The position numbers were made by a program, and so were the translations under genes. This document shows, in pieces, positions 13,725-31,146 of a DNA stretch of 37,623 nucleotides. Positions within the stretch are counted from its first letter, which is position 1. Each line of letters starts with the position of its first letter. This stretch comes from Campylobacterales bacterium (GTDB lineage Bacteria; Campylobacterota; Campylobacteria; Campylobacterales; JALSKU01): contig JALSKU010000200.1 in assembly GCA_026988685.1 (NCBI GenBank), positions 1 to 37,623 of the forward strand, in the 5' to 3' direction. The notes under the pieces were generated by a model that worked only from the letters and a program-made list of their open reading frames with translations, ran no database searches and had not been told where the DNA came from.

Positions 13725-14681
13725 TTACTTTCTATACTCCTTAAATATCTTCTTTATCGTAGGAGATGCATCTTTTAGATAATTTTTAAGCATTTTATCT
13801 GCTATCTTATCAAGGCTCTTTTTAAGCTCAGGTGTTGCTTCGCTTATCTTCATGCCATGTTTAGCCAAAGTTTTAAGAGCTATCTTATCCTCATCTTTAG
13901 CAGCTTGCCATTGAGCTTTTTCCATCTCTTTAGCCGCTTTTAGCATAGCTTGTTGTTGAGATTTGCTAAGTGAGTTCCAGTAGTCTAGGTTTATAGTAAC
14001 CGCTTGCAATGGGTATGCATAGTGTATCTTTGTAAAGTGTGTTAAAACTTCCCAAAATTTTCCATCTTTTCCTGAAGCAGAAGATGTAACAACAGAGTTG
14101 ATCATGCCGGTTCTTAAAGCTGAGTAAACCTCTCCCCAAGCCATAGCTATCGCATTTCCACCTGCCATATTGATAAAAGTTGCAGAGTTCTTGTCGTAAG
14201 TTCTTGTCTTTAAACCTTTAAAATCCTCTATCTTTTTTATAGGTTTTTTTGTGTAGATTCCGCTTGGTGGCCAAGTCACTGCGTATAGAAGTTTTTGATT
14301 CCACTTTTTAAATGTTTTTATATATGCAGGTTTTGAGATTTGATAAAGCTTAAAAGCATCACTGTAAGAGTTTGCTATAAAAGGAAGAGCCGAGATACCA
14401 AAAACTTTTCCACCGCCTGAAGTGAAAGGGATAAACATATCTGTCATGGCAACAGTTCCGTCTTTGACGGCTTTTAGGGGGTTGCCTTTTACGAGAGAAC
14501 TTCCTGCATGGACTGTTATCTTCACAGTTCCATTTGTATATTTGTCAACAAGTTTGGCAAACTTTACCGCACCTTTTGTATGAAAGTTGTTTGCACCATA
14601 TTTTGCATTTAAGTCCATTTTGACGACACTAGCCATCAGTCCAGCCGAAACGGCAGCTGTAAGTAATACCTTCTTTAGCAT
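13725..14681 (-). CDS. TRAP transporter substrate-binding protein (DctP type)
   Basis: 318 aa with a signal peptide. It is the first gene of the P-Q-M order and is preceded by the SD AAGGAG. Confidence 0.85.
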   Translation of the reverse strand: MLKKVLLTAAVSAGLMASVVKMDLNAKYGANNFHTKGAVKFAKLVDKYTNGTVKITVHAGSSLVKGNPLKAVKDGTVAMTDMFIPFTSGGGKVFGISALPFIANSYSDAFKLYQISKPAYIKTFKKWNQKLLYAVTWPPSGIYTKKPIKKIEDFKGLKTRTYDKNSATFINMAGGNAIAMAWGEVYSALRTGMINSVVTSSASGKDGKFWEVLTHFTKIHYAYPLQAVTINLDYWNSLSKSQQQAMLKAAKEMEKAQWQAAKDEDKIALKTLAKHGMKISEATPELKKSLDKIADKMLKNYLKDASPTIKKIFKEYRK

Positions 14682-14751: not shown

Positions 14752-15024
14752 ATAACCTGAGTTCGACAGTATATCATACCCATAGAAGGCAAAGAAGGCA
14801 TAAGATTTCGTCAAGAGAAATTCGCAGGACTACCCAAAGGTAATTCAAGAATTTATCTTGTGAAAGATTGTGCCTTATTTGCTTTCCCCTCGGGCTTTAT
14901 TTGCTTGTCCATATGCTTCGTTGCAACTCCTCGACTATGCTTTGGCATAGACTTCGTCATTGCGCCTCGCCTATGAACAAGCAAAGAAAGCTATGGGTAT
15001 GATATATTGTCAAACTCAGGTTAA
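14752..15024. mobile_element. ~270-bp nested-palindrome element with 32-bp terminal inverted repeats (MITE-like or structured ncRNA)
   Basis: 14754-14785 is the reverse complement of 14991-15022 at 30/32 positions. Inner stems: 14786-14803/14868-14885 (15/18), 14812-14823/14849-14860 (11/12) and 14895-14913/14972-14990 (17/19). There is no credible ORF. A hand count of line 14881-14940 gives 30/60 G+C, well above the surrounding intergenic DNA. Confidence 0.5.
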
Positions 15025-15085: not shown

Positions 15086-17647
15086 ATGGATATAAGAGCT
15101 GAGTTTTTAAGGTTTTTTGAGGATAAAGGACATAAGATATATGAGAGTGCGCCTTTGGTGCCTGATGATCCTTCATTGCTTTTTGTAAATGCGGGAATGG
15201 TGCAGTTTAAGTCGATATTTACCGGAGAAGTTCCGGTACCCAATCCGCCAAGAGCTACTAGTAGTCAAACTTGCATAAGAGCCGGTGGTAAACATAATGA
15301 CTTGGAAAATGTCGGCTATACAAACAGACACCATACCTTTTTTGAGATGCTTGGAAACTTCTCCTTTGGGGATTACTTTAAAGATAAAGCGATAGAGTAT
15401 GCCTGGGAGTTTGTGACTGAAGTTTTAAAACTTCCCAAAGAGAGGCTCTGGGTTACGGTTCATACGAGTGATGATGAGGCTGAAGAGTTATGGAAGAGAT
15501 TTGTTGATGCTGACAGGATAAAAAGATTTGGTGATAAAGATAATTTTTGGCAGATGGGTGATACAGGACCTTGCGGACCTTGTAGCGAGATATTTTATGA
15601 TCAGGGTTCGGAGATGTTTAACTCTGATGAGGATTATTTAGGAGGCGACGGGGACAGATTTTTGGAGATTTGGAATCTTGTCTTTATGCAGTATGAGAGA
15701 TCAAGTGATGGAACTTTAACACCTCTTCCAAAGCCCTCTATCGATACCGGAATGGGACTTGAGAGAGTTGCTGCGGTGTTAGAGGGAGTTCCTAGCAATT
15801 ACGATACCGAACTGTTCATGCCGCTTATCAATAAAGTGAGCAAGATTTGCTCAAAACCTTATGTATATGAAGAGGGAGCAAGCTTTAGGGTCATAGCTGA
15901 TCATATAAGAAGCGTAACTTTTTTACTAGCCCAGGGGGTTACCTTTGACAAGGAGGGAAGAGGTTATGTTTTAAGAAGGATACTAAGAAGAGCGGTTCGA
16001 CATGGCTACCTGCTTGGTATAAAAGAGCCGTTTATGTATAAACTTGTCGATACTTTATGTGATATAATGGGCAAAGCATATCCATACATCGTAGAAAAAA
16101 GTGATAGCGTTAAAGAGATGATAAAAAATGAAGAAAATAACTTTCTCTCAACCATAGCAAGTGGGATGGAGCTTTTTGAAAAAGAGTTAAAAACTACCAA
16201 AGATATCTTTAGTGGTGAAGTGGCCTTTAAGCTTTATGATACTTACGGATTTCCACTTGATTTAACTGCCGATATGCTAAGAGAAGTTGGCAAAAGTGTG
16301 GATATCAAAAAGTTTGAAGAGCTTATGGGTGAACAAAAAAGAAGATCCCAAGCCTCTTGGAAAGGAAGTGGAGATAAGGCTAAAGATGGCGACTTTAAGG
16401 CGTTAATAGAGAAGTTCGGACTAAATGAGTTTGTAGGTCATGAGAGTTTAAAATCCAAAGCAAAGATCCTTGCTTTGTTATATGAAAATTTTAAGATAAC
16501 CAATGAGTTAAAAGAGGGCGAAACAGGTTGGGTATTTTTAGATAAGAGTCCGTTTTATGCTGAAAGTGGCGGGCAGTGTGGAGATGAGGGAGTTATAAAA
16601 AAAGATGAAGATACAGTAGCTAAAGTTTTGGATACTCAGAAATTTTTTGACCTTAATCTCTCAAAAATCAAGCTTACAAGAACTCTAAAAGAGAGTGAAG
16701 AGGTTGAGTGCGAGGTTGATGAGAGTAGAAGTGAGATAAAAAAACACCACTCTGCAACCCACCTCTTGCAATCTGCACTAAAGAGCGTGCTTGGAGATCA
16801 TGTCCAACAAGCCGGAAGTTTAGTGCTAAAAGATAAGCTTAGGTTTGATTTTTCTCACCCAAAAGCATTGAGCAGTGATGAGTTAGAGAGAGTTCAAAAC
16901 TTTGTAAATAGTATCATCCAAAGAGCAGTGCCGTCTAAAACTGAAATCTTACCTATAGATGAGGCTAAAAAAAGCGGAGCTACCGCACTTTTTGGCGAAA
17001 AGTACGGCGATGAGGTAAGAGTTGTCTCTTTTGGTGATGCTAGCATTGAGTTTTGCGGTGGAACTCATGTAAAAAACAGTAGTGAGATAGGAAGTTTTTA
17101 TATCACCAAAGAGAGTGGAGTGAGCGCTGGAGTTAGAAGGATAGAGGCAGTTTGCGGGGAGAGTGCATATAACTACTCCAAAAGATTTATGAGGGATTTT
17201 GCTAAAATTTGCGAAGAGGTTAAAAACAAAGATCCTTTTATGGGTATAAAAAGATTAAAAGATACGATAACTAAACAAAAAGCGGAAATTGATCGGCTTC
17301 TAAAAAGCAGTAAAAAAGAGATAGATATAAAAGAGGTAGATGGTATCAAGCTCATCGTAGATGAAGTTGAAGCAGGAGATATAAAAAGTTTGATAGATGA
17401 GTATAAAAACAGGTTTGATAAAGTCGCCGTTATGCTCTTTCAAAAAAGAGGAGATAAGGTTATCATAGCTAGTGGCGTTAAAGGTGCCAAGATAAAAGCC
17501 GGAGCTTGGGTAAAAGAGATAGCTCCAATTCTTGGAGGTAACGGCGGAGGAAGAGATGATTTTGCCCAAGCTGGAGGTAAAGATGCCTCAAAAATAGGCG
17601 AAGCTAAAAAAGAGGCTATAAAATATGTGGAGAGAGTTAAGAGTTAA
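15086..17647 (+). CDS. alaS: Alanine--tRNA ligase
   Basis: 853 aa with the class II motifs '[12 protein letters not shown]' and '[13 protein letters not shown]', the editing-domain 'HSATHLL' and 'CGGTHV' zinc motifs, and a C-terminal DHHA1-like '[12 protein letters not shown]'. Confidence 0.97.
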
Positions 17648-17668
17648 GAATTAAGAGTTAAGAGTTAA
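17634..17668 (+). repeat. Heptanucleotide tandem repeat (GAGTTAA x5, one unit GAATTAA)
   Basis: Units lie at 17634, 17641, 17648 (variant), 17655 and 17662. The repeat spans the alaS stop codon (17645-17647). Confidence 0.85.
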
Positions 17669-17682
17669 GGAATGGGGGTTTT

Positions 17683-18180
17683 ATGAGTAATTTTTTTACG
17701 GAGTTTTTTGCGAGTTACGGGAGATTTTTAGTATTTATACATATTGTTTCAGCTGTTATATGGATAGGCGGGATGATAGTTGTTAAGTTTGTCGTTGCAC
17801 CTTCCGTGGCAAAGATACAGGATGTTAAACTAAGACTTTCAAGAACTTTGGAGATTATGCAAAGACTTCTTAATTTTGCGATGCTGTTTATGATACTTTT
17901 GGCAATTACCGGTACATTTATGAGCCTTGGGGTTGATTTTAAACACTCTTCGCCATCGCTTTATATACTTGTGCATATAAAAGAGGCGGTTTGGACATTG
18001 ATGGCACTTAACTTTATCTACATATACAGAAAAAGAAACAGTGCCGAGAGACAATTTGTAAGCGGTGATGATGAAGGTGCCGCAGAGAGTATATTTACCA
18101 TCAGCAAATATCTTTTACCGCTAAATATCTTTCTTGGTTTTGTGGCCATCTACTTTGGTGTGATATTAAGGGGTCTTTAA
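17683..18180 (+). CDS. Integral membrane protein, 4 TM (CopD/HemJ-like topology; family not assignable by eye)
   Basis: 165 aa with four hydrophobic segments. It has a His in TM1 followed by W.GG ('FIHIVSAVIWIGG'). Its stop overlaps the maf start (TAATG). Confidence 0.6.
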   Translation: MSNFFTEFFASYGRFLVFIHIVSAVIWIGGMIVVKFVVAPSVAKIQDVKLRLSRTLEIMQRLLNFAMLFMILLAITGTFMSLGVDFKHSSPSLYILVHIKEAVWTLMALNFIYIYRKRNSAERQFVSGDDEGAAESIFTISKYLLPLNIFLGFVAIYFGVILRGL

Positions 18181-18728
18181 TGTTGATATTAGCTTCAAAA
18201 TCTAAAACAAGAGCAAAAATTTTAAAAAACTTTGGAGTGGAGTTTAAACAAGTTGGTTGTGATTATGACGAAGATAGCATAAAAAGCAGCTCGCCAAAAA
18301 GCTTTGTCTATCTTAGCTGCAAAGGAAAGATGGATGCTTGCGAAGAGAAACTAGGACTAAAAACTCCGCTACTTTGTGCAGATACCGTCGTAAGTGCAGA
18401 CTCAAAGATACTAAGAAAAGCAAAAGATAAAGATGAAGCTAGAGAGATACTTTTAACTCAAAGTGGAGGGAGCGTATCGATACTAACTTGCGTTATATAC
18501 AAAAGCATCGATCTAAGCTTTACTGATATATCGAAAACAACCTATCTTTTTAGTGAGTTTGATAGAGACGATCTTGAAAAATATCTAGATAGCAATGAGT
18601 GGAGAGATAAAGCCGGAGCTTGCATGGTAGAAGGGTTTTGTAAAAAGTATATAAAAGAGGTTATAGGGCTTGAGAGTTGCGCAATGGGTTTACAGATAGA
18701 AAAATTGCTCCCTTTTTTGGAAAGATAG
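18180..18728 (+). CDS. maf: Maf-like nucleoside triphosphate pyrophosphatase (septum formation protein Maf family)
   Basis: 182 aa with 'LILASKSKTRAKIL', 'CADTVV' and 'DKAGACMVEG' blocks matching the Maf pattern. Confidence 0.85.
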   Translation: MLILASKSKTRAKILKNFGVEFKQVGCDYDEDSIKSSSPKSFVYLSCKGKMDACEEKLGLKTPLLCADTVVSADSKILRKAKDKDEAREILLTQSGGSVSILTCVIYKSIDLSFTDISKTTYLFSEFDRDDLEKYLDSNEWRDKAGACMVEGFCKKYIKEVIGLESCAMGLQIEKLLPFLER

Positions 18729-19418
18729 GTGAAATTTTATCTAAAAAAGCTAAAGATATATGATATTGATAAAACTCTTGTCGATATATCTTTCTCTTTT
18801 AATGACTCTTTCGCACTAGTCGGTCAAAGTGGCAGTGGAAAAAGTTTAACTTTGAAGTCTCTTTTGGGCTTGATGCCTTCAAATCTGCAATATAAACTTG
18901 ATTATGAGTGGGAGCATAAGTTACAAAGAGGAATAACTGTCTCTTTAGTCCCTCAGAACCCCTTTACCTCATTATCACCTTTAACAAAGATAAAAGATAA
19001 CTTTTTTAGCGATGATTATGATGAACTTTTAGAGATGGTTGGTTTGGATAGTGCTTTGGCAAAGAGATTTCCAAGCGAGCTTAGTGGTGGGCAGCTTCAA
19101 AGAGTGATCATCGCTATAGCACTCTCTCACAATCCAAAACTACTTCTACTCGATGAGCCTACAACTGCACTAGATGGTGATACAAAAGAGCAGATACTGC
19201 AACTCATAAAGGAACTACAAGCCAAGCAAGGCTTTAAGATACTCTTTGTAACTCATGATATAAATGCAAGCCAAGTAGTTTGTAAAGAGATAGGCATTAT
19301 CAACGAAGGTAAAATTTTAGAAACAGGTAAAATTGACGATATACTACAAAATCCAAAAACAAGCTATACAAAAAAACTGATAGAGGCAAATTTTAAAAAC
19401 AGAGAGTTTAGATGTTAA
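18729..19418 (+). CDS. ABC transporter ATP-binding protein (GTG start)
   Basis: 229 aa with Walker A 'GQSGSGKS', signature 'LSGGQLQRV', Walker B 'LLLLDEP' and an H-loop 'VTHD'. No permease gene is adjacent. Confidence 0.85.
   Translation: MKFYLKKLKIYDIDKTLVDISFSFNDSFALVGQSGSGKSLTLKSLLGLMPSNLQYKLDYEWEHKLQRGITVSLVPQNPFTSLSPLTKIKDNFFSDDYDELLEMVGLDSALAKRFPSELSGGQLQRVIIAIALSHNPKLLLLDEPTTALDGDTKEQILQLIKELQAKQGFKILFVTHDINASQVVCKEIGIINEGKILETGKIDDILQNPKTSYTKKLIEANFKNREFRC
19389..19418 (+). repeat. Left copy of a perfect 30-bp direct repeat (AATTTTAAAAACAGAGAGTTTAGATGTTAA)
   Basis: Identical to 26052-26081 at all 30 positions. It covers the last 10 codons (the stop included) of the ABC ATPase gene. 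Confidence 0.95.
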
Positions 19419-19445
19419 CTGATGTTAAGAAAAGTTTATAGTTTT

Positions 19446-19468
19446 TTGTATATAATGACAATATACAA
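19446..19468 (+). promoter_or_regulatory. Candidate island promoter/operator: inverted repeat TTGTATAT-N7-ATATACAA overlapping a TATAAT -10
   Basis: The 8-bp arms at 19446-19453 and 19461-19468 are exact reverse complements. TATAAT sits at 19451-19456, about 21 nt upstream of the brnT start. Palindromes overlapping the promoter are typical of RHH-antitoxin autoregulation. Confidence 0.4.
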
Positions 19469-19476
19469 AAAAGGTT

Positions 19477-19800
19477 TTGATTTTGCAGTTTGATTGTTTG
19501 GATATAGAAAATATAAATGGTTTTGAATGGGATAGCGGAAATATTTTAAAAAATGAGGTAAAACATGGGCTGAAGTGGCAAGTAATAGAAGAGCTGTTTT
19601 TCAATGAGCCATTGGTTGTAATAGAGGATAAAAAACATTCAAGTGAAGTTGAGTGTAGATGTGCTGCTCTTGGACATATAGACAATGGTAGGTTAATAAG
19701 TGTAATATTTACCATAAGAAACAGAAAGATTAGAGTTATCTCCGCAAGAGATATGAGTAAAAAAGAGAGGAGGTTTTATGAAGAGTTTACCAAAGTTTAA
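19477..19800 (+). CDS. brnT: BrnT-family toxin (DUF497 ribonuclease toxin), TTG start
   Basis: 107 aa with 'FEWDSGNILKNEVKHGL' and 'IRVISARDMSKKERRFY', the two signature blocks of BrnT/DUF497. It overlaps brnA by 23 nt. Confidence 0.85.
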   Translation: MILQFDCLDIENINGFEWDSGNILKNEVKHGLKWQVIEELFFNEPLVVIEDKKHSSEVECRCAALGHIDNGRLISVIFTIRNRKIRVISARDMSKKERRFYEEFTKV

Positions 19801-20029
19801 TAATCAAAAAGATGAGATGGATTTTTGGGACAAAAATGATATTAATGACTATTTTGATCTTAAAAGTGCAAAGCTTGTAAAATTTCCAAAGTTAAAAAAA
19901 AGCACCAAAACTATATCGCTAAGACTACCTGAAGATATGATAGAGAAGTTAAAAGTTAGAGCAAATGCTCTTGATGTGCCCTATCAGTCTCTTATAAAAA
20001 TTTTATTGCAAAAAGAGTTAAGTGCTTAA
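19778..20029 (+). CDS. brnA: BrnA-family antitoxin (CopG/RHH-like)
   Basis: 83 aa with 'EMDFWDKNDINDYFD' and 'ISLRLPEDMIEKLKVRANALDVPYQSLIKILL', matching the BrnA pattern. Confidence 0.85.
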   Translation: MKSLPKFNNQKDEMDFWDKNDINDYFDLKSAKLVKFPKLKKSTKTISLRLPEDMIEKLKVRANALDVPYQSLIKILLQKELSA

Positions 20030-20032
20030 AAA

Positions 20033-23000
20033 ATGATAACGAAAACAAATTTCAAATCACTTCTTAAAAAATTAGATTTTACTCAAAATGGTGACATTTT
20101 TATAAAAAAATTTGAAGAGTTTGATTGTGAGCTAAGAGTTGATTTTAAAAACCAAAAGTTGATCTATCCGGAAAACAAAGGTTTAATAGTAAATGATAAA
20201 ACCACTTCAAACTTCTCAAGCCATGAAAATTTTGTAGTTTACGAAGCGGTGCATAGACTACTTACTCAAGGGTATAAGCCAAACCATATAGAGCTTGAAA
20301 AGAAGTGGCAATTAGGTCATACTCAAAAAAGCGGTAAAGCTGATATAGTTATAAAAGATAATGCTGATAAAATTATACTTATAATTGAGTGTAAAATAGC
20401 AGGAAATGAATATAAAAAAGCTATAAATATACTTGAAAATGATTCAAGAAATCAACTCTTTTCATACCTTCAACAAGCTCCAACTACTAAATTTTTAGCC
20501 TTGTATTCGAGTGATTTTTGTGATGGAAAAGTAGAGTATGATTATTATCTTGTAAATGTAACAGACAATAAAGAATTACTCCAAAACAATCCTAAACTAA
20601 AATCATATAAAGAAGCAAAAACTGTAGAAGAAAAATATAGAGTATGGATAGAAACTTACGGTAAAGAGTATGCAACTATAGGGCTTTTTGAAGATAATAG
20701 AGCTTATGAAATTGGTAAAAATAGGTTTAGTATAAAAGATTTAAAAAGTGTTAGCATCAAAGATATACAGGGTAAATACCACCAGTTCGCAACTATTCTT
20801 AGGCAACATAACATTTCAGGTCGTGAAAATGCTTTTGATAAGCTCATTAATCTTTTTTTATGTAAAGTAACTGATGAGATGGAAAATCCTAATGATCTAA
20901 AGTTTTACTACAAAGGCATGGCCTATGATGACCCTTTTAGTTTCCAAGATCGACTCCAACAACTTTATAAAATAGGAATGGAGAAGTTTTTAGAAGATAA
21001 GATAACTTATATAGAAAACAAAAAAATTGATGAAGCTTTTGGAGTTTTTAAAGATAAGCCAAATGTTACAAAAGAGCTTATAAAGAACTATTTTAAAGAG
21101 CTAAAATTTTTTACAAATAGTGACTTTGCTTTTATAGATGTACATAATGAAAAACTTTTTTACCAAAACTTTGAAGTTCTTTTGAAAGTTGTTAAAATTT
21201 TTCAAGATATGAGGTTAACAGGAAGTGAAGAGAATCAATTTTTAGGAGATATGTTTGAAGGTTTTTTGGATCAAGGAGTCAAACAAAGTGAAGGGCAGTT
21301 TTTTACACCACTTCCAATAGTAAAATTTATAATCAACTCTTTACCAGATTTAGAAAAACCAAATGTCATTGACTATGCTTGCGGAGCGGGACACTTTTTA
21401 AATGAGTATGCAAATCTAAACAAAGATAGTTACATAGTAGGAGTTGAAAAGGAGTATCGTTTAAGTAAAGTAGCAAAAGTTAGCTCTTTTATGTATGGGC
21501 ATAACATAGAGATAGTTTATGCCGATGCTCTAAGTTCTCATAACAAGATAAAAGAGAAGAGTTTTGATTGTCTTGTATCAAATCCACCATATAGCGTAAA
21601 GGGTTTTTTAACAACATTAAGTAAAAAGGATAGAGAAAATTACGAGTTAATAGACGATGTAGATGTAAAAAGCTACTCTAAAACAGGAGCCATAGAGTGC
21701 TTTTTTCTTGAAAGAGTTTGTCAACTTTTAAAAGAAAATGGGATTTCTGGAATTATAGTGCCAAGCTCCATACTCAACAAAGATACTCCAAAACTATACA
21801 CTACAACAAGAGAGATAATTTTAAAATATTTTGATATAGTTGCCATTGTTGAGTTTGGAAGCGGTACATTTGGAAAAACCGGCACAAATACAGTAACACT
21901 TTTTTTAAAGAAAAGAGAAGAGGAGTATCTCTTTGAACACTATGAAAATATGATAAATGAGTGGTTTAATGGTGATTTTAAGATAAATGAGATTTTTAGA
22001 GATGAAGATAAACTAAAAGAGTATTGCAAATATCAACAAATTGATTTTAGTGCTTACAAACAGTTACTTTGTAATGAGCTTAATAGTGAGCTTTTTAAAA
22101 ATGAAACTTTTAGCGAATATAAAAAAGCTTTTGAAAAATCGAGCCTATTAAAAGAGCTAAAAAAGAAAAGATATTTTAAAGAGTTAGGCAAAATTGAGCA
22201 AGAAGAGAGAATAGAAAAAGAGCTTATAGCTTTTATAAAAACAATCGAAAAAGATAAACTACTCTACTTTATGTTGGCAAGTTTCCAGAGAAATGCAGTT
22301 GTGATAGTAAAATCTCCAACTTCTAATAGTGAGATAAAAAAATTCTTAGGATATGAGTGGAGCGGTAGAAAAGGGGATGAGGGGATAAAGTATATAACAA
22401 AAGAGAGTATAAGAGTCGATGAGAACTTAGATGAAGATGATAAAAGAGTGCTTGAAAACCTACAAGGTATAAAATATATAGATACTCCACTTTATAATCC
22501 ACAAAATTTAGATGATAACTTGAAAATAAATAAGATCATAAAAGATAATTTCGAATATGGAAAGTTTAATATACCAGATAGTTTAAAAAAATATGTAAGC
22601 AGTGCAAAGCTCGTTGATATGCTGGATTTTAGCAGGGTAGAGTTTAACAAGGCTATAAATTTAAACCCTACTAAAAAGGTGGAAACAGAAAGTAAGTGGG
22701 AGTTGGTTAGACTTGGAGATGTAGCTGATATATTGATAGTAGGAACACCGTCAAGAAATAAACCAGAATATTTTAATGGTAATCATCTTTGGGTTTCAAT
22801 AGCAGAAATAAATAATCAAATTATAACTAATACTAAAGAAAAGCTTTCAGATGATGGTGTAAAAAATTCAAATGTTAAACTTATACCTAAAAACACTACA
22901 TTATTGAGTTTTAAACTATCAATTGGAAAAACTGCTATTGCTGGTAAAGATTTATATACAAATGAAGCTATAGCTGGACTTGTTATAAAACAAGAAATAA

Positions 23001-23791
23001 AAGAAAAATTAACTGATAAATATTTATTTTATTTATTTAGTTCTGGAATTATTAATTTAGATAAAAATAACTTTAATGCTTTTGGAAAAAGTTTAAATAG
23101 CAAATTTCTGAAAAATGAAGTAAAAATCCCACTTCCGCCACTTAATATCCAAGAAAAGATAGCAAAAGAGTGTGAAGAGATAGACAAGATTAGCGAAAGT
23201 TTAAGAATTGAAAATGTTGAGTTAAAAGAGAAGATAGAAAGAAGTTTTAATGAGATTTATAATATTGCAACTGAAACCGTAAGATTAAGCGACGAAGAGA
23301 GTTTTGAAGTTTTCATAGGAAAAAGAGTGCTTTCAAAAGATATAGGCCAAAACCAAAATGATGGTATTCCTGTATATAGTGCAAATGTTTTTGAACCATT
23401 TGGATATACCAAAAAAGAGTTTTTAAAAGATTTTTCAAAACCTTCTGTATTGTGGGGTATAGATGGGGATTGGATGGTAAATATATTGCCAAAAGATACT
23501 CCATTTTATCCAACCGATCATTGTGGAGTTATAAGAGTTAAGAGTGATGAAATTGAACCAATTTATCTTAAATTTGTACTATATAAAGAGGGCTTAGAGC
23601 AAAGATTTTCAAGAAGTAACAGAGCATCTACTGCAAGAATAAAATCACTTACTATAAAAATACCATCAAAAGATATACAATATAGTTTTTCTAAAAAAGT
23701 CAATGAATTTGAAATAAAAATTAACCAAAACCAAAAAATTATAGAGAGTAGCAAAGCAAAAAAAGAGGAAGTTTTAAAAAAATGGCTATAA
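20033..23791 (+). CDS. Single-chain restriction-modification-specificity enzyme: N-terminal PD-(D/E)xK nuclease (HsdR_N-like) + gamma-class N6-adenine methyltransferase (HsdM-like) + two HsdS-type TRDs. AloI/CjeI-like Type IIB/IIG architecture, no ATPase motor
   Basis: 1252 aa. Nuclease motif 'GKADIVIKDNADKIILIIECK' (D104...E119-x-K121; nt 20342-20395). Methylase motif 'GQFFTP' (aa 421-426), motif I 'DYACGAGHF' (aa 447-455) and motif IV 'NPPY' (aa 517-520; nt 21581-21592). HsdS-like TRD1 starts 'KWELVRLGDVADI' (aa ~888) and is followed by the conserved spacer 'IPLPPLNIQEKIAKECEEID'. TRD2 runs from aa ~1081 to ~1205 with the second conserved spacer 'IKIPSKDIQYSFSKKV'. No helicase/Walker motifs are seen. 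Confidence 0.85.
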   Translation: MITKTNFKSLLKKLDFTQNGDIFIKKFEEFDCELRVDFKNQKLIYPENKGLIVNDKTTSNFSSHENFVVYEAVHRLLTQGYKPNHIELEKKWQLGHTQKSGKADIVIKDNADKIILIIECKIAGNEYKKAINILENDSRNQLFSYLQQAPTTKFLALYSSDFCDGKVEYDYYLVNVTDNKELLQNNPKLKSYKEAKTVEEKYRVWIETYGKEYATIGLFEDNRAYEIGKNRFSIKDLKSVSIKDIQGKYHQFATILRQHNISGRENAFDKLINLFLCKVTDEMENPNDLKFYYKGMAYDDPFSFQDRLQQLYKIGMEKFLEDKITYIENKKIDEAFGVFKDKPNVTKELIKNYFKELKFFTNSDFAFIDVHNEKLFYQNFEVLLKVVKIFQDMRLTGSEENQFLGDMFEGFLDQGVKQSEGQFFTPLPIVKFIINSLPDLEKPNVIDYACGAGHFLNEYANLNKDSYIVGVEKEYRLSKVAKVSSFMYGHNIEIVYADALSSHNKIKEKSFDCLVSNPPYSVKGFLTTLSKKDRENYELIDDVDVKSYSKTGAIECFFLERVCQLLKENGISGIIVPSSILNKDTPKLYTTTREIILKYFDIVAIVEFGSGTFGKTGTNTVTLFLKKREEEYLFEHYENMINEWFNGDFKINEIFRDEDKLKEYCKYQQIDFSAYKQLLCNELNSELFKNETFSEYKKAFEKSSLLKELKKKRYFKELGKIEQEERIEKELIAFIKTIEKDKLLYFMLASFQRNAVVIVKSPTSNSEIKKFLGYEWSGRKGDEGIKYITKESIRVDENLDEDDKRVLENLQGIKYIDTPLYNPQNLDDNLKINKIIKDNFEYGKFNIPDSLKKYVSSAKLVDMLDFSRVEFNKAINLNPTKKVETESKWELVRLGDVADILIVGTPSRNKPEYFNGNHLWVSIAEINNQIITNTKEKLSDDGVKNSNVKLIPKNTTLLSFKLSIGKTAIAGKDLYTNEAIAGLVIKQEIKEKLTDKYLFYLFSSGIINLDKNNFNAFGKSLNSKFLKNEVKIPLPPLNIQEKIAKECEEIDKISESLRIENVELKEKIERSFNEIYNIATETVRLSDEESFEVFIGKRVLSKDIGQNQNDGIPVYSANVFEPFGYTKKEFLKDFSKPSVLWGIDGDWMVNILPKDTPFYPTDHCGVIRVKSDEIEPIYLKFVLYKEGLEQRFSRSNRASTARIKSLTIKIPSKDIQYSFSKKVNEFEIKINQNQKIIESSKAKKEEVLKKWL

Positions 23792-24663
23792 ATAAGTTTG
23801 GTGGGAATTGGACAGAAACTAAACTAAATATTCTTGGAAAATATTTAAGTGCATACACCACTATACTAAAAAAGTATAATTTTAAGATAGCTTTTATAGA
23901 TGCTTTTGCAGGAACAGGGTATATTGAAAACAAACAAAATACCGATGAAAATCTATTGTTTGAATTTGAGGAAACTAAAGAGTACATAAAAGGTTCAGCA
24001 ATAGTTGCATTAGAAACAAAGCCTTGTTTTGATAGATATATTTTTATAGACTTGAATAAAAATAATTTAGATAATTTAAAACAAATAATTAATGAAAAAT
24101 TTTCAAATAAAAAAGATAATTGCATATTTTACAATGATGATGCTAATATAGTTTTAGAAAAATTGTGTAATAAAAATTGGCAAAGACATAGAGCTATAGT
24201 ATTTTTAGATCCTTTTGGAATGGAAGTAAAATGGCAAACAATAGAATCTATAGCTAAAACTAAAGCAATTGATTTATGGATTTTATTTCCATTTGGTATA
24301 GGTGTTAATAGATTACTTACAAATGATATATCAAAAATGCCTTCATCTTGGGAGAAGAAATTAAATGATATATTTGGAACAGATGAATGGAAAAATACTT
24401 TTTATAAAACTACTGTAGAGCCTTCTTTATTTGGTGAATTTGAGAAAACAAGAAAAGTTACAAATTTTAATAAAATAGCTCAATTTTATATTGACAGATT
24501 AGAGTCTATTTTTGTAGGAGTTATTGACAAACCTATGTATCTTTGTAATTCAAGAAACAATCCTTTATTTTTATTCTGTTTTGCTTCGGGAAATGAAAAA
24601 GGAAGTAAAACTGCTATTAAAATAGCAAAAAATATAATGGTTAAAGAAATGGGGTTAAAATAA
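23782..24663 (+). CDS. tcmP: Three-Cys-motif partner protein TcmP (TIGR04474-like); Rossmann/methyltransferase-like motifs
   Basis: 293 aa. The N-terminus 'FGGNWTETKLNILGKYLSAY...IAFIDAFAGTGY' matches my recollection of the TcmP family. It sits next to a DUF5131 gene, the family's defining context. The ATG overlaps the R-M-S stop by 10 nt. Confidence 0.7.
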   Translation: MAINKFGGNWTETKLNILGKYLSAYTTILKKYNFKIAFIDAFAGTGYIENKQNTDENLLFEFEETKEYIKGSAIVALETKPCFDRYIFIDLNKNNLDNLKQIINEKFSNKKDNCIFYNDDANIVLEKLCNKNWQRHRAIVFLDPFGMEVKWQTIESIAKTKAIDLWILFPFGIGVNRLLTNDISKMPSSWEKKLNDIFGTDEWKNTFYKTTVEPSLFGEFEKTRKVTNFNKIAQFYIDRLESIFVGVIDKPMYLCNSRNNPLFLFCFASGNEKGSKTAIKIAKNIMVKEMGLK

Positions 24664-24664
24664 A

Positions 24665-25369
24665 ATGAATAAAACAAAAATAGAATGGACTGAGAGCAGT
24701 TGGAATCCGATTACTGGATGTACTAAAATAAGTGATGGATGTTTAAACTGCTATGCTGAAAAAATGGCATATAGACTTAAAACAATGGGAACAAAAGGAT
24801 ATGAGAATGGTTTTGAGGTAACATTACAATACCATCAATTAGAAAAACCGCTTAAAATGAAAAAACCTCAAATGATTTTTGTAAATTCTATGAGCGATAT
24901 ATTTCATGAAGATGTTCCAGATGATTATATATTAAAAATCTTTGAAATTATGGATCAAGCTTCTTGGCATATTTTTCAAGTATTAACAAAAAGACCAGAA
25001 AGACTGAAATCACTAAAAGATAAAATAGTATGGACGGATAATATTTGGATGGGAACTACTATTGAAAGTAATAAATATATAAATAGAGTAGATTTTATTA
25101 AAAACACTAATGCAAAAATAAAATTTATATCTTTCGAACCTTTATTAAGTAGTGTTAAAGATGTTGATTTAAGTGGAATTGACTGGGTAATTGTAGGGGG
25201 TGAGAGTGGAAGCGGAGCAAGAATTATAAAAAAAGAGTGGGTATATGAGATAAGAGATAAGTGTGAAGAACTAAATATTCCTTTCTTTTTTAAACAGTGG
25301 GGTGGAACAAACAAAAAGAAAAATGGAAGATTGCTTGATGGAAAAATTTATGATAAGATACCTTTGTAA
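24665..25369 (+). CDS. DUF5131 (Pfam PF07505, 'phage Gp37/Gp68') family protein with a three-Cys motif
   Basis: 234 aa with 'KIEWTESSWNPITGCTKISDGCLNCYAEK' (C19-x6-C26-x2-C29), 'DWVIVGGESGSGAR' and 'FFFKQWGG', the characteristic blocks of this family. It starts 1 nt after the tcmP stop. Confidence 0.85.
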   Translation: MNKTKIEWTESSWNPITGCTKISDGCLNCYAEKMAYRLKTMGTKGYENGFEVTLQYHQLEKPLKMKKPQMIFVNSMSDIFHEDVPDDYILKIFEIMDQASWHIFQVLTKRPERLKSLKDKIVWTDNIWMGTTIESNKYINRVDFIKNTNAKIKFISFEPLLSSVKDVDLSGIDWVIVGGESGSGARIIKKEWVYEIRDKCEELNIPFFFKQWGGTNKKKNGRLLDGKIYDKIPL

Positions 25370-25387
25370 ATATTTATATTATAATAA

Positions 25388-25458
25388 CCACTGCCTTAAA
25401 TTCTCAGCAGTCTGTAGTCAGTAATCACTATGTAGTTAAGTGGAATTTAAAGAAGTGG
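25388..25458. terminator. Imperfect 16-bp inverted repeat downstream of the DUF5131 gene (possible terminator, processing site or structured leader)
   Basis: CCACTGCCTTAAATTC (25388-25403) pairs with GAATTTAAAGAAGTGG (25443-25458), 14/16 complementary, with a 39-nt loop. There is no clear U-tract. Confidence 0.25.
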
Positions 25459-25539
25459 GATGTAAAAGTAGGGAGTTGAATTTATGGATGAGATATTACA
25501 GATAAAAATTTTAAAATTATCAAAAAAAGTAAAAAAATT

Positions 25540-26034
25540 GTGATAGATAATTTTGAAAGTGAAAGTATAATAGATAAAAATATTGATCCGGAAGTTGTTA
25601 TTGGAGAGCTTATAAATCTAACTGAAAAGCTATCCTCTGCTATTCAAACGCGAGCAGAGACTTTTGATAAAAGATATAATAATGAAGATGAGATGTTACA
25701 TGAAATTAAAATATTTTTTGAAAAGCTTAATTCATATATTGAAAAAATTACAATGATATTTATTGATATCAAAACCAATTTGGATGATACTTTATCTAAA
25801 TTATTAGCATTAAAATATGTTGAGAAAATTTTATGTGATTATTTAATTTGGTGTGAAAAGTTAGAAAATGCGATATTGGGGTTAGGTAGCACTGAAGTTA
25901 TATTTAAACCAGATGTTAAGATAGAAAACAGAATTTTTAGCTATGCCTCAGAGAGACTAATCAAACATAATGATTCTTGGCTTTTGCCATTTGTTGGCGG
26001 GATAGGATTGGGATTTTTATTGGATGATGGCTAA
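25540..26034 (+). CDS. Hypothetical protein, predicted helical with a C-terminal hydrophobic tail anchor
   Basis: 164 aa with a GTG start and no SD. No recognisable family. The C-terminus 'WLLPFVGGIGLGFLLDDG' looks like a single TM/tail anchor. It lies inside the island, just before the right direct repeat. Confidence 0.45.
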   Translation: MIDNFESESIIDKNIDPEVVIGELINLTEKLSSAIQTRAETFDKRYNNEDEMLHEIKIFFEKLNSYIEKITMIFIDIKTNLDDTLSKLLALKYVEKILCDYLIWCEKLENAILGLGSTEVIFKPDVKIENRIFSYASERLIKHNDSWLLPFVGGIGLGFLLDDG

Positions 26035-26051
26035 TTTTGCAGTATCAAGGT

Positions 26052-26081
26052 AATTTTAAAAACAGAGAGTTTAGATGTTAA
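26052..26081 (+). repeat. Right copy of the perfect 30-bp direct repeat
   Basis: Identical to 19389-19418. It contains the SD-like AGAGAG and the mrcA ATG (26075). Confidence 0.95.
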
Positions 26082-27991
26082 AATATATCATTTCATTTAT
26101 CTTTATAGTTGTTATCGGAGTTTTTGCTTTTTTGCTTAAAACTTACTCGGATATAAGGTTTGAGGCTTATAAGGTTATCAACTATGAGCCCGATTTGACT
26201 ACCAGGATCTTTGATAGAAACGGAAAGCTTATAGCCAATATTTTTGGAAAACATAATAGAGTATATGTCAAATACAAAGATATACCCCCAAGAGTGATAG
26301 AGTCTTTGGTGGCTATAGAAGATACTCTCTTTTTTGAGCACAGCGGGATAAATCTTGAGGCGATTTTTAGAGCAGCTATAAAAGATATAAAGGCTATGAA
26401 GTTTGTCGAGGGTGCCAGTACTCTTACTCAGCAACTTATAAAAGATACCTTGCTAACTAGAAACAAGACGATCTTGAGAAAGATAAAAGAGGCGCTCTTA
26501 GCCATTAGGGTTGATAGCGCTTTAACAAAAGAGCAGATCATAGAGAGGTATCTAAACCAGGTATACTTTGGTCATGGTTATTATGGTATCAAAACTGCGG
26601 CTTTAGGCTATTTTCATAAAGAGCTAAATGAACTTAGTTTAAAAGAGATAGCCATACTTGTTGGTCTTCCAAAGGCCCCAAGTGCCTACAATCCTGCCAA
26701 ACATATGGATCTTTCACTTGCCAGAGCAAATATGGTGCTTGATAGGCTCTACAAGCTTGGCTGGATAGATGCAAAACAGTATGAAAAATCACTAAATGAA
26801 CGACCGTTAGTATATGACGATACCCTAACTCAAAATGTTGCTCCCTATGTTACGGATGAAGTTGTCAAGAGACTATCAAAAAAGTATAAAGATTTAAAAA
26901 CCGGTGGCTATAAGATATATACAACTATAGATCTTGATGAGCAGTTTTTGGCAAAAAAAGCTTTGAAGTTTGGGTATGACGGTATCATTAAAAGAGATAA
27001 AGATATAAACTCTACATTAAATGGCGCTATGGTTGTGATGGATAATCATACCGGAGAAGTGTTGGCAATGGTTGGCGGGGTTGACTATAAAAAGAGTAGT
27101 TTTAACAGGGCTACTCAAAGCAAAAGACAACCGGGATCCAGCATAAAACCTTTCATATATCAGATAGCGCTAAACTATGGCTACAGTGAGGCAACCAAGA
27201 TAGCCGATATATCAAGAGTTTATGAAGATAAGATAAAAAATAAAGATTGGAAACCAAGAAATTATGAGAATAACTTTGAAGGATTGATAACACTTGAAGA
27301 CGCACTTGTTCACTCAAGGAACTTGGCCACTATAAATCTTGTAAATGATTTGGGTCTTGAAAATGTCTATAAAAATCTAAAATTTTTAGGTTTTAAGGGA
27401 GTTCCCTATGACCTTTCAATCGCTCTTGGTAGTTTTGGCGTCTCTCCGTATGAGTTTGCCGGTAAATACACTCTCTTTTCCAACTATGGAGAGATGATGA
27501 AGCCACTACTTATAAAAAAGATTGTAAACAGGTTTAGAGATATGGAGATTTACAAGCCTCAGGGCAAAAAGATAAATGAGCCTAAACAGGCGTATTTGAT
27601 GATAGATATACTAAAAAATGTTGTTTTAAGGGGTACGGGAAGAAATGCCAGGATAAAAGGTATAGAAACAGCAGGAAAAACGGGAACCACCAATAACTAT
27701 ATAGATGCTTGGTTTTGCGGTTTTACTCCTGATATAGAAGTGATCACCTGGTATGGACATGATGACAATACACCGATGAAAAGAAGAGAAACAGGTGGAA
27801 GAGCTGCTGCTCCGGCTTTTAACTACTTTGTCTCAAACTATCTTGCAATCCACCCTGAAACAAAAAGAGAGTTTAAGATACCAAAAGGTGTCGATAAATT
27901 TGTTAAAGATGGAAAAACATACTACTTTACGGATATTTCAAAACCTCCAAAAGAGGGCAACGGTGATAGTAGCAGTAAACTTATATTTTAG
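26075..27991 (+). CDS. mrcA: Penicillin-binding protein 1A (bifunctional glycosyltransferase/transpeptidase)
   Basis: 638 aa with an N-terminal TM segment. GT51 motifs are 'EDTLFFEHSGIN', 'GASTLTQQL' and 'RKIKEA'. Transpeptidase motifs are 'SSIKPF' (SxxK), 'SRN' and 'KTGTT'. Confidence 0.92.
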   Translation: MLKYIISFIFIVVIGVFAFLLKTYSDIRFEAYKVINYEPDLTTRIFDRNGKLIANIFGKHNRVYVKYKDIPPRVIESLVAIEDTLFFEHSGINLEAIFRAAIKDIKAMKFVEGASTLTQQLIKDTLLTRNKTILRKIKEALLAIRVDSALTKEQIIERYLNQVYFGHGYYGIKTAALGYFHKELNELSLKEIAILVGLPKAPSAYNPAKHMDLSLARANMVLDRLYKLGWIDAKQYEKSLNERPLVYDDTLTQNVAPYVTDEVVKRLSKKYKDLKTGGYKIYTTIDLDEQFLAKKALKFGYDGIIKRDKDINSTLNGAMVVMDNHTGEVLAMVGGVDYKKSSFNRATQSKRQPGSSIKPFIYQIALNYGYSEATKIADISRVYEDKIKNKDWKPRNYENNFEGLITLEDALVHSRNLATINLVNDLGLENVYKNLKFLGFKGVPYDLSIALGSFGVSPYEFAGKYTLFSNYGEMMKPLLIKKIVNRFRDMEIYKPQGKKINEPKQAYLMIDILKNVVLRGTGRNARIKGIETAGKTGTTNNYIDAWFCGFTPDIEVITWYGHDDNTPMKRRETGGRAAAPAFNYFVSNYLAIHPETKREFKIPKGVDKFVKDGKTYYFTDISKPPKEGNGDSSSKLIF

Positions 27992-28028
27992 GAGTAAAGG
28001 TAAAGAGGTGTAAAGCAGTAAAGAAGTT

Positions 28029-28050
28029 AGGAGGAACTCTCGTTCCTCCT
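28029..28050. terminator. GC-rich hairpin between convergent mrcA and glnA (candidate bidirectional terminator)
   Basis: AGGAGGAAC-TCTC-GTTCCTCCT forms a 9-bp perfect stem with a 4-nt loop, located between the stops at 27991 (+) and 28075 (-). The flanking U-tracts are weak. Confidence 0.4.
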
Positions 28051-28074
28051 CTCTCACATCTCGTCTCTAGAAAA

Positions 28075-29505
28075 CTAGCAAGAGTAAGTTGACTTAAACT
28101 CAAAAGCTGTTGGTCTGGCTTCGTCTGGCCAAACTTGGGTTTCAAATTTGTAGTGTTGATATGTATCTATGAAAAGGTCACTCATAACAGGCTTTAAGAA
28201 GTCATTGTCTGCTATAAGTCCCTCTAATGCTTCTCTTAGAGTGTGTGGCATTTGAGGTATACCTTTTTCTCTAATTTCTGCTAAGCTTAACTCAAAAAGG
28301 TCTTCATTCATAGGACCTACAGGTTCATATTGATTTTTTATACCGTCAAGTCCTGCAAGTAGCATTGCACTAAAAGCAAGATATGGGCAAGCAGTTGAAT
28401 CAGGGAATCTTAACTCTATCCTTGTAGCGGCTTCTCCTGCACCATAAGGTATCCTGCAGCTTGCAGATCTGTTTTGGCTTGAGAAAGTTAGTATGCTTGG
28501 AGCTTCGAAGCCAGGTATTAATCTCTTGTAAGAGTTTGTCGATGCGTTTGTAAATGCCGCAACTGCATGAGCGTGTTTAAATACACCACCAATATACCAT
28601 CTTGCTTCATCACTCAAGTTCGCATAATTTCCCTCTTTGTAGAAAAGGTTTTTGCCATCTTTCCAGATTGACTGGTGAGTGTGCATTCCGTTTCCATTGT
28701 CTCCGTAGAGTGGTTTTGGCATAAATGTTGCAGTTTTGCCGTTTAGATGCGCAACCATTTTCACAACATATTTATACTTTTGGACATTATCTCCGGCTTC
28801 TATGATATCGCCATATTTAACACCTATCTCGCCTTGAGCCTGGGCAACTTCGTGGTGACCCAAAGCAACTTCCAAGCCAACCTCTTCAAGAACTTGCATC
28901 ATTTCCGCTCTTAGGTCAACCATAGAGTCGATTGGTTGAATAGGAAAGTAACCGCCTTTTGTTCTTGGTCTGTGTCCGGTGTTCATATCATCTATAAAAG
29001 TGGTAGGGTCATTCCACTCGCCCTCGCTTGAATTTACCTCATAATAAGCAGAGTTTATCTCATCTTTTATCTTAACATCATCAAAGATGAAAAATTCATT
29101 TTCAGGACCAAAATATGCTTCATTGCCTATACCAGACTCTTGAAGGTATTTTAGAGTCTTTTTGGCTATACTTCTTGGGCACTTCTCGTAAAGCTCGCCT
29201 TTATATATATCAAATACATCGCAGATAACTATAACAGTAGGATCAGCCGTAAAAGGGTCTAAAAATGCTGTCGGGACATCCGGCTTTAAAATCATATCAG
29301 ACTCATTTATAGGCTGCCAAGCCTCTATGGAACTACCGTCAAAAGGGATACCGGAAACTAGCATATCCTCATTAACCGCACTTAGGTTATATGTTATATG
29401 ATGCCATGTACCTTTGATATCGGTAAATCTAAAATCGATAAATTTTACCTCATTCTCTTCGCAAAATTCATAGAATTCTACAACACTGTTAACAAATTTT
29501 CCCAT
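28075..29505 (-). CDS. glnA: Glutamine synthetase, type I
   Basis: 476 aa with '[10 protein letters not shown]', '[10 protein letters not shown]', '[16 protein letters not shown]' and '[13 protein letters not shown]' blocks. Confidence 0.95.
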
Positions 29506-29574
29506 ATATTCTCTCCTTGCTTAAATTTTTCATTATGATAGCATATTTATTTTAAGAGGGTGATGAAAAAGTGA

Positions 29575-30354
29575 TTAAAAATTAATCAATTCTCTATCTC
29601 TATTTTTAAAAACTGCACATTTTTTATATCCGAATCTTTTAACTACTTGTAGGAGTTCTTTAGCTCCAGCTCCTATATCTTCAGGCTTGTGAGCATCACT
29701 TCCAAAGGTTATAGGTATCTCGTATTCGCTTATAAGTTCCATAAGTTTTTCTCCCGGATATATCTCTTTGCAGGGTTTTCTAAGCCCGGCGCTATTTAAC
29801 TCCACAACCATATCGGCATCTTTTATAGCCTTGATGGCATCTTGTGCTATAACTCTTATATCTTTTTTAGGCAAGAAATTAAAAAGTTTCATAAGATCTA
29901 TATGACCTACTATATCAAACAGTCCACTTTTTGCCATATCTTTTATAGCATCAAAATAGTCTCTCCACAAAAGATCTAAGTCTCTGTTTTTATAATCTTT
30001 TATAAATTCCGGGTTGTCAAAACCCCATCCATCTAAAAAGTGAACTGAACCTATCAGATAATCAACCTTAGCTTTCAACACTCTTTTATCCATATAACCG
30101 GGTAGATAATCAACCTCATATCCAAGAAGAATATCTAAATCTTTACTATATCTCTCTTTCAATATTAAAACTTTTGACTCATACAAGGGCATCTCATCAA
30201 AGCTCATCCTGTACTTCTTGTCAAAATCCATAGGAGCATGATCGCTAAAACCAAAATATTTTGTCCCGTTTTTTATAGCTTTGAGCACAAACTCATCCAT
30301 CTCACCGCTGGCGTGATTGCAAAGTTTTGTATGGTTATGAATATCTACTAACAT
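29575..30354 (-). CDS. PHP-family histidinol-phosphatase (HisJ/HisK type)
   Basis: 259 aa with 'DIHNHTKLCNHA', 'FSDHAP', 'GSVH', 'GHIDL' and 'GSDAH' metal-binding blocks characteristic of PHP histidinol phosphatases. Confidence 0.8.
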   Translation of the reverse strand: MLVDIHNHTKLCNHASGEMDEFVLKAIKNGTKYFGFSDHAPMDFDKKYRMSFDEMPLYESKVLILKERYSKDLDILLGYEVDYLPGYMDKRVLKAKVDYLIGSVHFLDGWGFDNPEFIKDYKNRDLDLLWRDYFDAIKDMAKSGLFDIVGHIDLMKLFNFLPKKDIRVIAQDAIKAIKDADMVVELNSAGLRKPCKEIYPGEKLMELISEYEIPITFGSDAHKPEDIGAGAKELLQVVKRFGYKKCAVFKNRDRELINF

Positions 30355-30428
30355 CTATACATCCAATTTTAATTTAATACAAATTATATTATAATATAGC
30401 AAATATTTTTATAAAACGGGAGAAAGGT

Positions 30429-31136: not shown

Positions 31137-31146
31137 AGGAAAATTT

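Follow-up and report, generated by a model that had tools for sequence, protein, structure and literature searches.

Inserts of less than 20 kb that carry restriction (R) and modification (M) genes, have no mobility genes and are flanked by direct repeats aligning to a single copy at the empty site have been described as 'insertion with long target duplication' (PMC2853133). Published cases of such restriction-modification (RM) insertions comprise Type I-IV RM systems with duplications of 25-423 bp. Many of them are found in Helicobacter pylori and Campylobacter jejuni, and the majority come from species with natural competence (PMC2853133). As cited by later work, the first description is that of Nobusato et al. 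(2000, Gene 259:99). Furuta, Abe and Kobayashi considered the mechanism unknown and suggested double-strand breakage by the RM system as a common factor (PMC2853133). Here, we analyzed a 37.6-kb stretch of DNA (hereafter, the window) from an uncultured Campylobacterales lineage, in which a low-G+C islet of 6,633 bp (19419-26051, + strand) lies between abc, the gene for an ABC transporter ATPase, and mrcA, the gene for a class A penicillin-binding protein (PBP1A). The islet is foreign, was inserted with duplication of 30 bp of its target and has no recombinase of its own. Probably, it represents a horizontally acquired, recombinase-less defense/addiction islet for which insertion with long target duplication was the route of entry, at the overlapping stop/start codons of abc and mrcA. 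This kind of insertion has already been described; the window provides a clean new example of a rare class.

The islet is bounded by a perfect direct repeat. The 30-mer T, AATTTTAAAAACAGAGAGTTTAGATGTTAA, occurs on the + strand at 19389-19418 (copy 1) and 26052-26081 (copy 2) with identity at 30/30 positions, and this pair alone makes up the long perfect repeats of the window. A third copy with at most three mismatches is not found within the 37.6 kb, where shuffled sequences yield an expectation of 0. Copy 1 comprises the last nine codons and the TAA stop codon of abc (18729-19418, +; Pfam ABC_tran), the product of which ends in ...NFKNREFRC. Copy 2 carries AGAGAG and the ATG (26075) of mrcA (26075-27991, +; TIGR02074, E = 1e-179), which encodes Transgly and Transpeptidase domains, and is thereby the source of both the Shine-Dalgarno (SD) sequence and the start codon of this gene. 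As read from the sequence, copy 1 combines the C-terminal codons and stop of abc with a putatively non-functional copy of the mrcA SD/ATG. A remnant open reading frame (ORF) of nine codons still begins at the ATG at 19412 in copy 1, and GATGTTAA has a second occurrence just past this copy, at 19421-19428. The latter falls in CTGATGTTAA (19419-19428, +), which repeats the end of T (TAGATGTTAA) imperfectly and in tandem over 10 nt. Because CTGATGTTAA is absent from the homologous left junction of a close relative (L142, discussed below; the prefix L designates loci from other assemblies), it would be a tandem copy made in the window lineage, outside the original joint. Upstream, the gene junctions are tight as well (TAATG at 18178-18182; 18728/18729). 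A first-pass annotation made from the sequence alone had pointed out the perfect repeat at these positions, the role of copy 1 in closing abc and of copy 2 in opening mrcA, the nine-codon remnant with the extra GATGTTAA and the tight neighboring junctions; the repeat search (0 mismatches) and the ORFs agree with it on every one of these. Both junctions recur in ENA ERZ27262649 (L001, L052) and Logan SRR7968110 (L002) at 99.96-99.98% identity, and since independent assemblies reproduce them, the structure is no assembly artifact. Overall, the 30-mer is counted twice in the window, once per relative and 0 times among 2.9 million viral contigs.

Relatives of the locus were found by scanning GTDB species genomes with PBP1A. 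In L003, with a PBP1A identity of 82%, the end of abc at 2110 lies beyond the start of mrcA at 2104, giving an ATGTTAA overlap, and the exact 30-mer is present once. L004 has the 30-mer at 29/30 positions with the overlap ATGCTAA, abc and mrcA overlap by ATGA in L005, and in L143 and L144 the TAA of abc is followed directly by the ATG of mrcA (TAAATG). Similarly, mrcA comes directly after abc in L006-L012, L014 and L016. None of about 14 related loci has an insert at the abc-mrcA junction. Both repeat copies of the window thus align to the single copy at the empty sites of relatives (exactly in L003, at 29/30 in L004). The first-pass annotation had predicted that the ancestral locus carried one copy of the 30-mer with the abc stop overlapping the mrcA start as ATGTTAA, and that alignment with related genomes would reveal abc directly abutting mrcA wherever the island is lacking. 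L003 shows precisely this arrangement and L004 shows it with one mismatch, and the direct adjacency of the two genes holds in the island-free relatives. The repeat also coincides with an unusually conserved block. In the 2.6-kb abc-mrcA alignment with L003, which is 73% identical overall, the longest perfect run is GCA+30-mer+A (34 nt; window 19386-19419, L003:2078-2111), and the C-terminus of the abc product, ...EANFKNREFRC, is the same in L003 and L004. At their synonymous sites, the final codons of abc are frozen, presumably by the translation-initiation signal of mrcA. Another difference between these loci lies upstream: in relatives at 68-82% PBP1A identity, maf and abc are separated by a gene for a BioF-like aminotransferase of 363-395 aa (L003:231-1418; L005:1577-2668; L143:4208-5308), whereas the window and L142 are without it and maf abuts abc (window 18728/18729).

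The foreign character of the islet is apparent from its absence in at least 14 related loci and from its composition. Its G+C content is 28.3% versus 35.8% for the rest of the window, where equal-sized segments range from 33.8 to 37.8%. The G+C content at third codon positions (GC3) is 14-28% for the islet genes versus 29-35% for core genes. Six tightly packed genes are present, all on the + strand and co-directional with abc and mrcA. The first two, brnT (19483-19800, +; PF04365, E = 1.7e-22) and brnA (19778-20029, +; PF12441, E = 4e-31; NF047399), code for a ribonuclease toxin and a CopG-type antitoxin, and are adjacent and overlapping as in a type II BrnT/BrnA toxin-antitoxin pair; brnT is also called as a 105-aa gene in L001, L002 and L142. 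The third gene (20033-23791, +) encodes a restriction-modification-specificity enzyme of 1252 aa that matches the PADLOC profile REase_MTase_IIG over its full length (E = 0). Its Pfam domains are HSDR_N_2, N6_Mtase and two Methylase_S stretches, and the motifs of the nuclease (D104..E119xK121) and of the methyltransferase (DYACGAGHF and NPPY517) are intact. Type IIB RM.BsaXI and HsdS subunits are among its sequence relatives in the PDB. A nuclease, an N6-adenine methyltransferase with NPPY and two target recognition domains (TRDs) are hence united in one polypeptide, which is the predicted single-chain Type IIB/IIG architecture. In this respect, the enzyme is comparable to the single-chain Type IIB enzymes of the AloI, CjeI, PpiI and TstI type. 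It is followed by a gene for TcmP, a three-Cys-motif partner protein (PDC-M41A; 23782-24663, +; TIGR04474, E = 1.8e-59; PDLC04635, E = 5e-111), and one for a DUF5131 / Gp37-Gp68 radical-SAM-like protein (PDC-M41B; 24665-25369, +; PF07505, E = 2e-96; PDLC04639, E = 7.5e-114), of which the family is listed as a radical-SAM subgroup (PMC9477430). Adjacent on one strand, the two correspond to the PADLOC candidate system PDC-M41. The last ORF (orf164; 25540-26034, +; 164 aa) is an orphan with no family match and a single homologue at 40% identity among 5.8 billion proteins. This homologue belongs to an operon of four genes, for which family annotation is scarce or absent, on a contig of 3.3 kb (L133).

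Genes for mobility are lacking. Recombinase, transposase and integrase domains were found in none of the islet ORFs with Pfam, NCBIfam, PHROGs and PADLOC, and integrases, transposases, relaxases and resolvases were detected neither in the islet nor in the scanned ORFs elsewhere in the window. With about 245 bp of non-coding DNA in total, the islet has no space for a decayed recombinase gene. The window contains no tRNA or tmRNA, nor any other Rfam family, and the islet has no terminal inverted repeats (similarity of its ends, p about 0.75 versus shuffles). Neither of the hallmarks of an integrative element (a recombinase gene inside, a tRNA/tmRNA target) is therefore found, and the same applies to the inverted ends and 2-15 bp duplication of DNA transposons, insertion sequences and miniature inverted-repeat transposable elements (MITEs), the duplication here being 30 bp. 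Several other candidate features were considered and set aside. A resemblance of the islet ends to the target flanks, as would be left by a longer original duplication or by Campbell-style entry with donor flanks, is not significant for the flanks in the window (p = 0.13 and 0.57), and L005 gives one marginal, non-colinear match. Once the two repeat copies are discounted, a 9-nt direct repeat near both ends (ATTTTGCAG) and the excess of GATGTTAA in the window (6 versus about 2 expected) are within chance. TcmP/DUF5131 as a mobility module was rejected, with the pair occurring in only 1/8 of the repeat-flanked homologous loci described below, and so was orf164 as a hidden mobility factor, given its orphan status and a sole 40% identical homologue in an operon with scant family annotation.

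These properties place the islet in the class studied by Furuta et al. It joins R and M functions in a fused ORF, the insert of 6,633 bp is below 20 kb, the repeats align to a single copy at the empty site, and no mobility gene was found in the insert or, with Pfam, among the neighbors scanned. As to repeat length, the published repeat screen used >20 bp and a stricter one >30 bp, with 25-29 bp repeats being included in Table 3 (PMC2853133). The 30/30 bp repeat passes the 20-bp screen and is exactly at, not above, the 30-bp limit. The first-pass annotation had proposed this class from the repeat, the apparent absence of an integrase, transposase or recombinase ORF and a drop in G+C counted by hand. 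The class assignment stands by the features compared, the absence is upheld by four libraries of hidden Markov models run on the islet ORFs, and the drop is confirmed by GC3 and the window-wide profile (28.3% versus 35.8%).

Apart from the full state in the window and the empty state in many relatives, a third, decayed state of the locus was recovered. Among database proteins, the PBP1A nearest to that of the window (P0123, 96% identical) originates from GCA_054021235.1 (L142). In this genome, the order is abc, the exact 30-mer, brnT, brnA, a 95-nt spacer with a TATAAT box, ATGATAACTAAA, GAGTTTAGATGTTAA and mrcA. By blastn, L142 4-3925 aligns to window 16139-20027 and L142 4036-10332 to window 26066-32342, and counterparts of the RM gene (beyond four codons), TcmP, DUF5131 and orf164 are absent. 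ATGATAACTAAA matches the first four codons of the window RM gene at 11/12 nt and, with the two upstream nucleotides and the next GA, the starts of three other RM homologues at 16/16. An in-frame fusion joins it to nt 16-30 of copy 2, the only part of this copy left. An ORF of eight codons results (L142:4025-4051, MITKEFRC*; compare window 20033-20044 and 26067-26081), the stop of which overlaps the mrcA ATG and resembles the overlap of the abc stop at empty sites. This short ORF may preserve translational coupling, and its ending on ATGTTAA hints that termination-reinitiation coupling at the mrcA start could be under selection. Judged by its gene order and alignment, the L142 locus is the INTERMEDIATE state, a putative decayed intermediate between full and empty.

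The decayed locus also informs on the age of the insertion. At the nucleotide level, brnT and brnA are 87-88% identical between the window and L142, which is within the 79-90% range of flanking core genes. In the simplest reading, an ancestor shared by the window lineage and L142 would already have carried brnTA and the RM gene at this junction. A later deletion in the L142 lineage would have spared brnTA and removed about 6,022 bp, equivalent to window 20045-26066, starting at RM codon 5 and ending at nt 15 of copy 2. As L142 shares the left junction, brnTA and the RM remnant, the insertion predates the split of both lineages and is not recent. Likewise, the 30-mer is unchanged in L142 and L003 and lies in the most conserved run, so that the 30/30 identity of the two copies reflects constraint, not recency. 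More generally, perfect identity of flanking repeats can stem from functional constraint and need not imply a recent event.

A plausible course of the insertion is as follows. Breaks at a distance of about 30 bp would have opened the target, being either staggered between the strands of a single chromosome or offset between two sister copies. Linear DNA of foreign origin, which probably entered by transformation, would have been joined between the ends, and repair (fill-in) synthesis would leave the 30-bp junction on both sides. Under selection, the sole viable products would be those with a duplication of both the abc terminal codons and stop, and the mrcA ribosome-binding site and ATG. Duplication of the entire abc-stop/mrcA-start block as a condition of viability would account for the position of the repeat in the most conserved stretch. 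Addiction to the toxin-antitoxin and RM systems would help the islet to persist, and co-directional genes without terminators would let mrcA still be transcribed. Terminator prediction yields one weak hairpin in the islet, inside the RM gene, which is fewer than in shuffles, and several promoter-like sites are predicted near the right end, with candidate promoters for mrcA near 25544-25571 and 26055-26084. Since the islet genes and mrcA point in one direction and a convincing terminator is not predicted, read-through into mrcA is plausible, and the separation of mrcA from its former operon promoter proposed in the first-pass annotation is a putative one.

Some points weigh against an insertion with long target duplication. 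The repeat of 30 bp is at the lower edge of the published length criterion. The mechanism of the class has never been demonstrated and, for the islet too, is a proposed one. No donor form of the islet came to light: the RM proteins nearest to its own share 75-78% identity and have unrelated contexts, plasmids and phages offer no near match to the islet, and viral contigs yield 3 distant RM matches. Finally, brnTA adjoins the RM gene in none of about 90 other RM loci. As this adjacency is unique to the window locus and L142 has a TATAAT-bearing spacer of 95 nt, the islet may be composite, assembled in two steps of which only one made the repeat.

Such a two-step assembly is the likeliest of the alternatives, although less probable than not. 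It considers the junction a hot spot at which brnTA and the block of RM, TcmP, DUF5131 and orf164 arrived separately; in a variant, earlier cargo was exchanged for the RM block when brnA and T served homologous recombination. Only the first event would have given rise to the 30-bp repeat, which makes this scenario a variant of, and compatible with, entry by long target duplication. Besides the missing adjacency elsewhere, the distance from brnA to the RM start speaks for it, being 95 nt with a TATAAT box in L142 versus 3 nt in the window, and close RM homologues have similar TATAAT-bearing leaders. No second repeat pair brackets either module, however, and the RM start is found downstream of brnA in both lineages, which means that the ancestor they share already had the two modules side by side.

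Homologues of the RM enzyme offer a broader view of how this family is embedded. Scanning metagenomes with the RM protein yielded 80 loci with best-segment identities of 43-59% and, in addition, L079 at 75%. A direct repeat of at least 20 bp brackets the homologue in 8 of the 78 loci having sequence on both sides, compared to 0/42 control loci centered on mrcA. The best repeat per locus measures 21, 23, 31, 34, 37, 52, 68 and 118 bp. Those of 34-118 bp are located in unrelated metagenomes (L129:9845-9912 / 13852-13919; L097:172 / 7122; L102:8393 / 20914; L105:2677 / 13735; L055:55 / 5383). In L129, the 3' end of the upstream gene forms the repeat, and nothing but the RM gene is inserted. Scanned cargo ORFs of L055, L096, L097, L102 and L105 carry defense or toxin-type domains, namely GmrSD, Fic, helicase-nuclease, the RhuM family, PDC-S11, PDC-M30 with PDC-S19 and a PDC-M29A/AriA-like ATPase. 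No recombinase occurs among the cargo ORFs scanned in these five inserts, several ORFs of L102 being outside the scan; an 824-aa and a 460-aa ORF in L102 are without any match. The Type IIG/IIB enzyme family of the window is thus repeatedly found between long direct repeats in metagenomes. With regard to its neighbors, a DUF5131 gene lies 1.1-1.3 kb downstream of the RM homologue in 5/80 metagenome loci (L096, L088, L099, L117, L063) as well as in the window. In L096 (13940-15810), the gene between RM and DUF5131 encodes a PDC-M30A protein, and a TcmP-like partner (PDC-M41A or PDC-M30A) is confirmed in the window (23782-25369) and L096. This recurrence in gene order suggests a functional link between the TcmP-like/DUF5131 candidate pair and the RM enzyme.

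Some members of the family do travel on classical elements: the homologous RM gene of L139 is accompanied by an integrase, a relaxase and 43-bp att-like repeats, and a resolvase and integrase are found near those of L140 and L141. The integrase-bearing setting in L139, together with the coincidence of the repeat with an unusually conserved block, would agree with site-specific integration, in which the 30-mer is an attachment (att) site for a recombinase encoded elsewhere (trans-mobilized or Xer-type) and the islet a non-autonomous integrative element. We consider this unlikely in view of the lack of an integrase or pseudogene remnant in an islet with about 245 bp of non-coding DNA, the lack of a tRNA, and a 30-mer that by inspection has no dyad-symmetric arms. 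Moreover, no other element occupies the junction in about 14 relatives, and 2.9 million viral contigs do not contain the 30-mer.

Cleavage by Type IIB enzymes takes place on either side of the recognition site, with the cuts 27-40 bp apart in characterized enzymes. In principle, the incoming enzyme, with its single-chain Type IIB architecture, could therefore have cut the unmethylated junction at offsets about 30 bp apart, its own DNA being captured between the ends. The perfect, sharp-edged repeats of 30, 34 and 37 bp and one imperfect repeat of 31 bp would suit this self-insertion, as would the RM double-strand breakage proposed as a common factor by Furuta et al. (PMC2853133). The 52, 68 and 118 bp repeats of other homologues do not, nor does the published class, which spans 25-423 bp and all RM types, and the scenario is accordingly judged very unlikely. 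The TRDs all differ, being only 30-60% identical, and do not lend themselves to a comparison of shared recognition half-sites. If true, the RM gene would act as its own integration machinery, and the long-unexplained insertions with long target duplication would be accounted for as far as the Type IIB enzyme class is concerned.

Least probable of all is an ancestral islet, with the empty sites having arisen by its repeated loss: if the two repeats recombined, precisely the overlapping junction seen would be restored, and L142 shows that deletions happen at the locus, but about 14 more distant lineages are all empty, including those with other junction forms (TAAATG in L143/L144, ATGA in L005), the G+C and GC3 are foreign, and the sole deletion observed, in L142, did not use the repeats.

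Elsewhere in the window, variation was noted upstream of the islet. An AAA_14/DUF4143 ATPase gene (8205-9479, - strand) has a G+C content of 28.9%, its neighbors 38%, and is probably another acquired gene by this measure; a flanking direct repeat of more than 9 nt was not found around it. The surrounding 8.2-14.7-kb stretch encompasses the ATPase gene, carboxyltransferase-domain genes (CT_A_B, CT_C_D), a LamB/YcsF gene and a DctPQM TRAP transporter. In L145, pdh directly adjoins alaS, which indicates that this whole stretch is variable. The intergenic region between dctP and alaS contains an inverted repeat (14753-15023) with 33-nt arms that are 94% complementary and 205 nt apart. Its interior appears richer in G+C than the surrounding intergenic DNA, which gives it a MITE-like look, and among the fetched loci no further copies exist except in the same-lineage contig L001.

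Compared with known systems, the RM enzyme of the islet resembles Type IIB enzymes of the AloI/CjeI/PpiI/TstI type and RM.BsaXI (PDB 8w0p), its single polypeptide of about 1250 aa combining an N-terminal PD-(D/E)xK nuclease, a gamma-class N6-adenine methyltransferase that has NPPY, and two HsdS-like TRDs. As differences, BsaXI has a separate S subunit, and PADLOC files the window enzyme as Type IIG. The PDC-M41 / PDC-M30 candidates were defined by guilt by embedding next to defense systems (Payne et al. 2024, bioRxiv 10.1101/2024.01.29.577857). In accordance with this definition, the TcmP-like and DUF5131 genes of the islet are adjacent and located beside an RM system, with a defense role that is a candidate one only. 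Unlike the systems used to define them (BREX, DISARM, Type I RM), the pair follows a Type IIG/IIB enzyme.

At the level of the whole insert, IS1630-type transposons likewise create long target duplications, of 19-26 bp (PMC2853133). The islet has in common with them and with integrase-borne islands that the direct repeats are longer than usual transposon duplications. In contrast, those islands and transposons encode an integrase or transposase and have att sites or inverted ends, none of which were found for the islet. It is among the cleanest natural examples of a recombinase-free insertion of defense genes, the duplicated 30 bp being exactly what two overlapping genes need. Its nearest counterparts are the RM insertions of H. 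pylori, C. jejuni, Haemophilus, Neisseria and other bacteria, with which it shares an RM-bearing insert of less than 20 kb, the lack of a mobility gene, a single-copy empty site and a repeat length within 25-423 bp. As in the H. pylori and C. jejuni cases, its host belongs to the Campylobacterota. Unlike the published RM insertions, the islet has an uncultured host and a multi-system cargo (toxin-antitoxin, RM and a candidate system), its duplication coincides exactly with an overlapping stop/start junction at which both genes survive, and empty, full and decayed sites have all been recovered.

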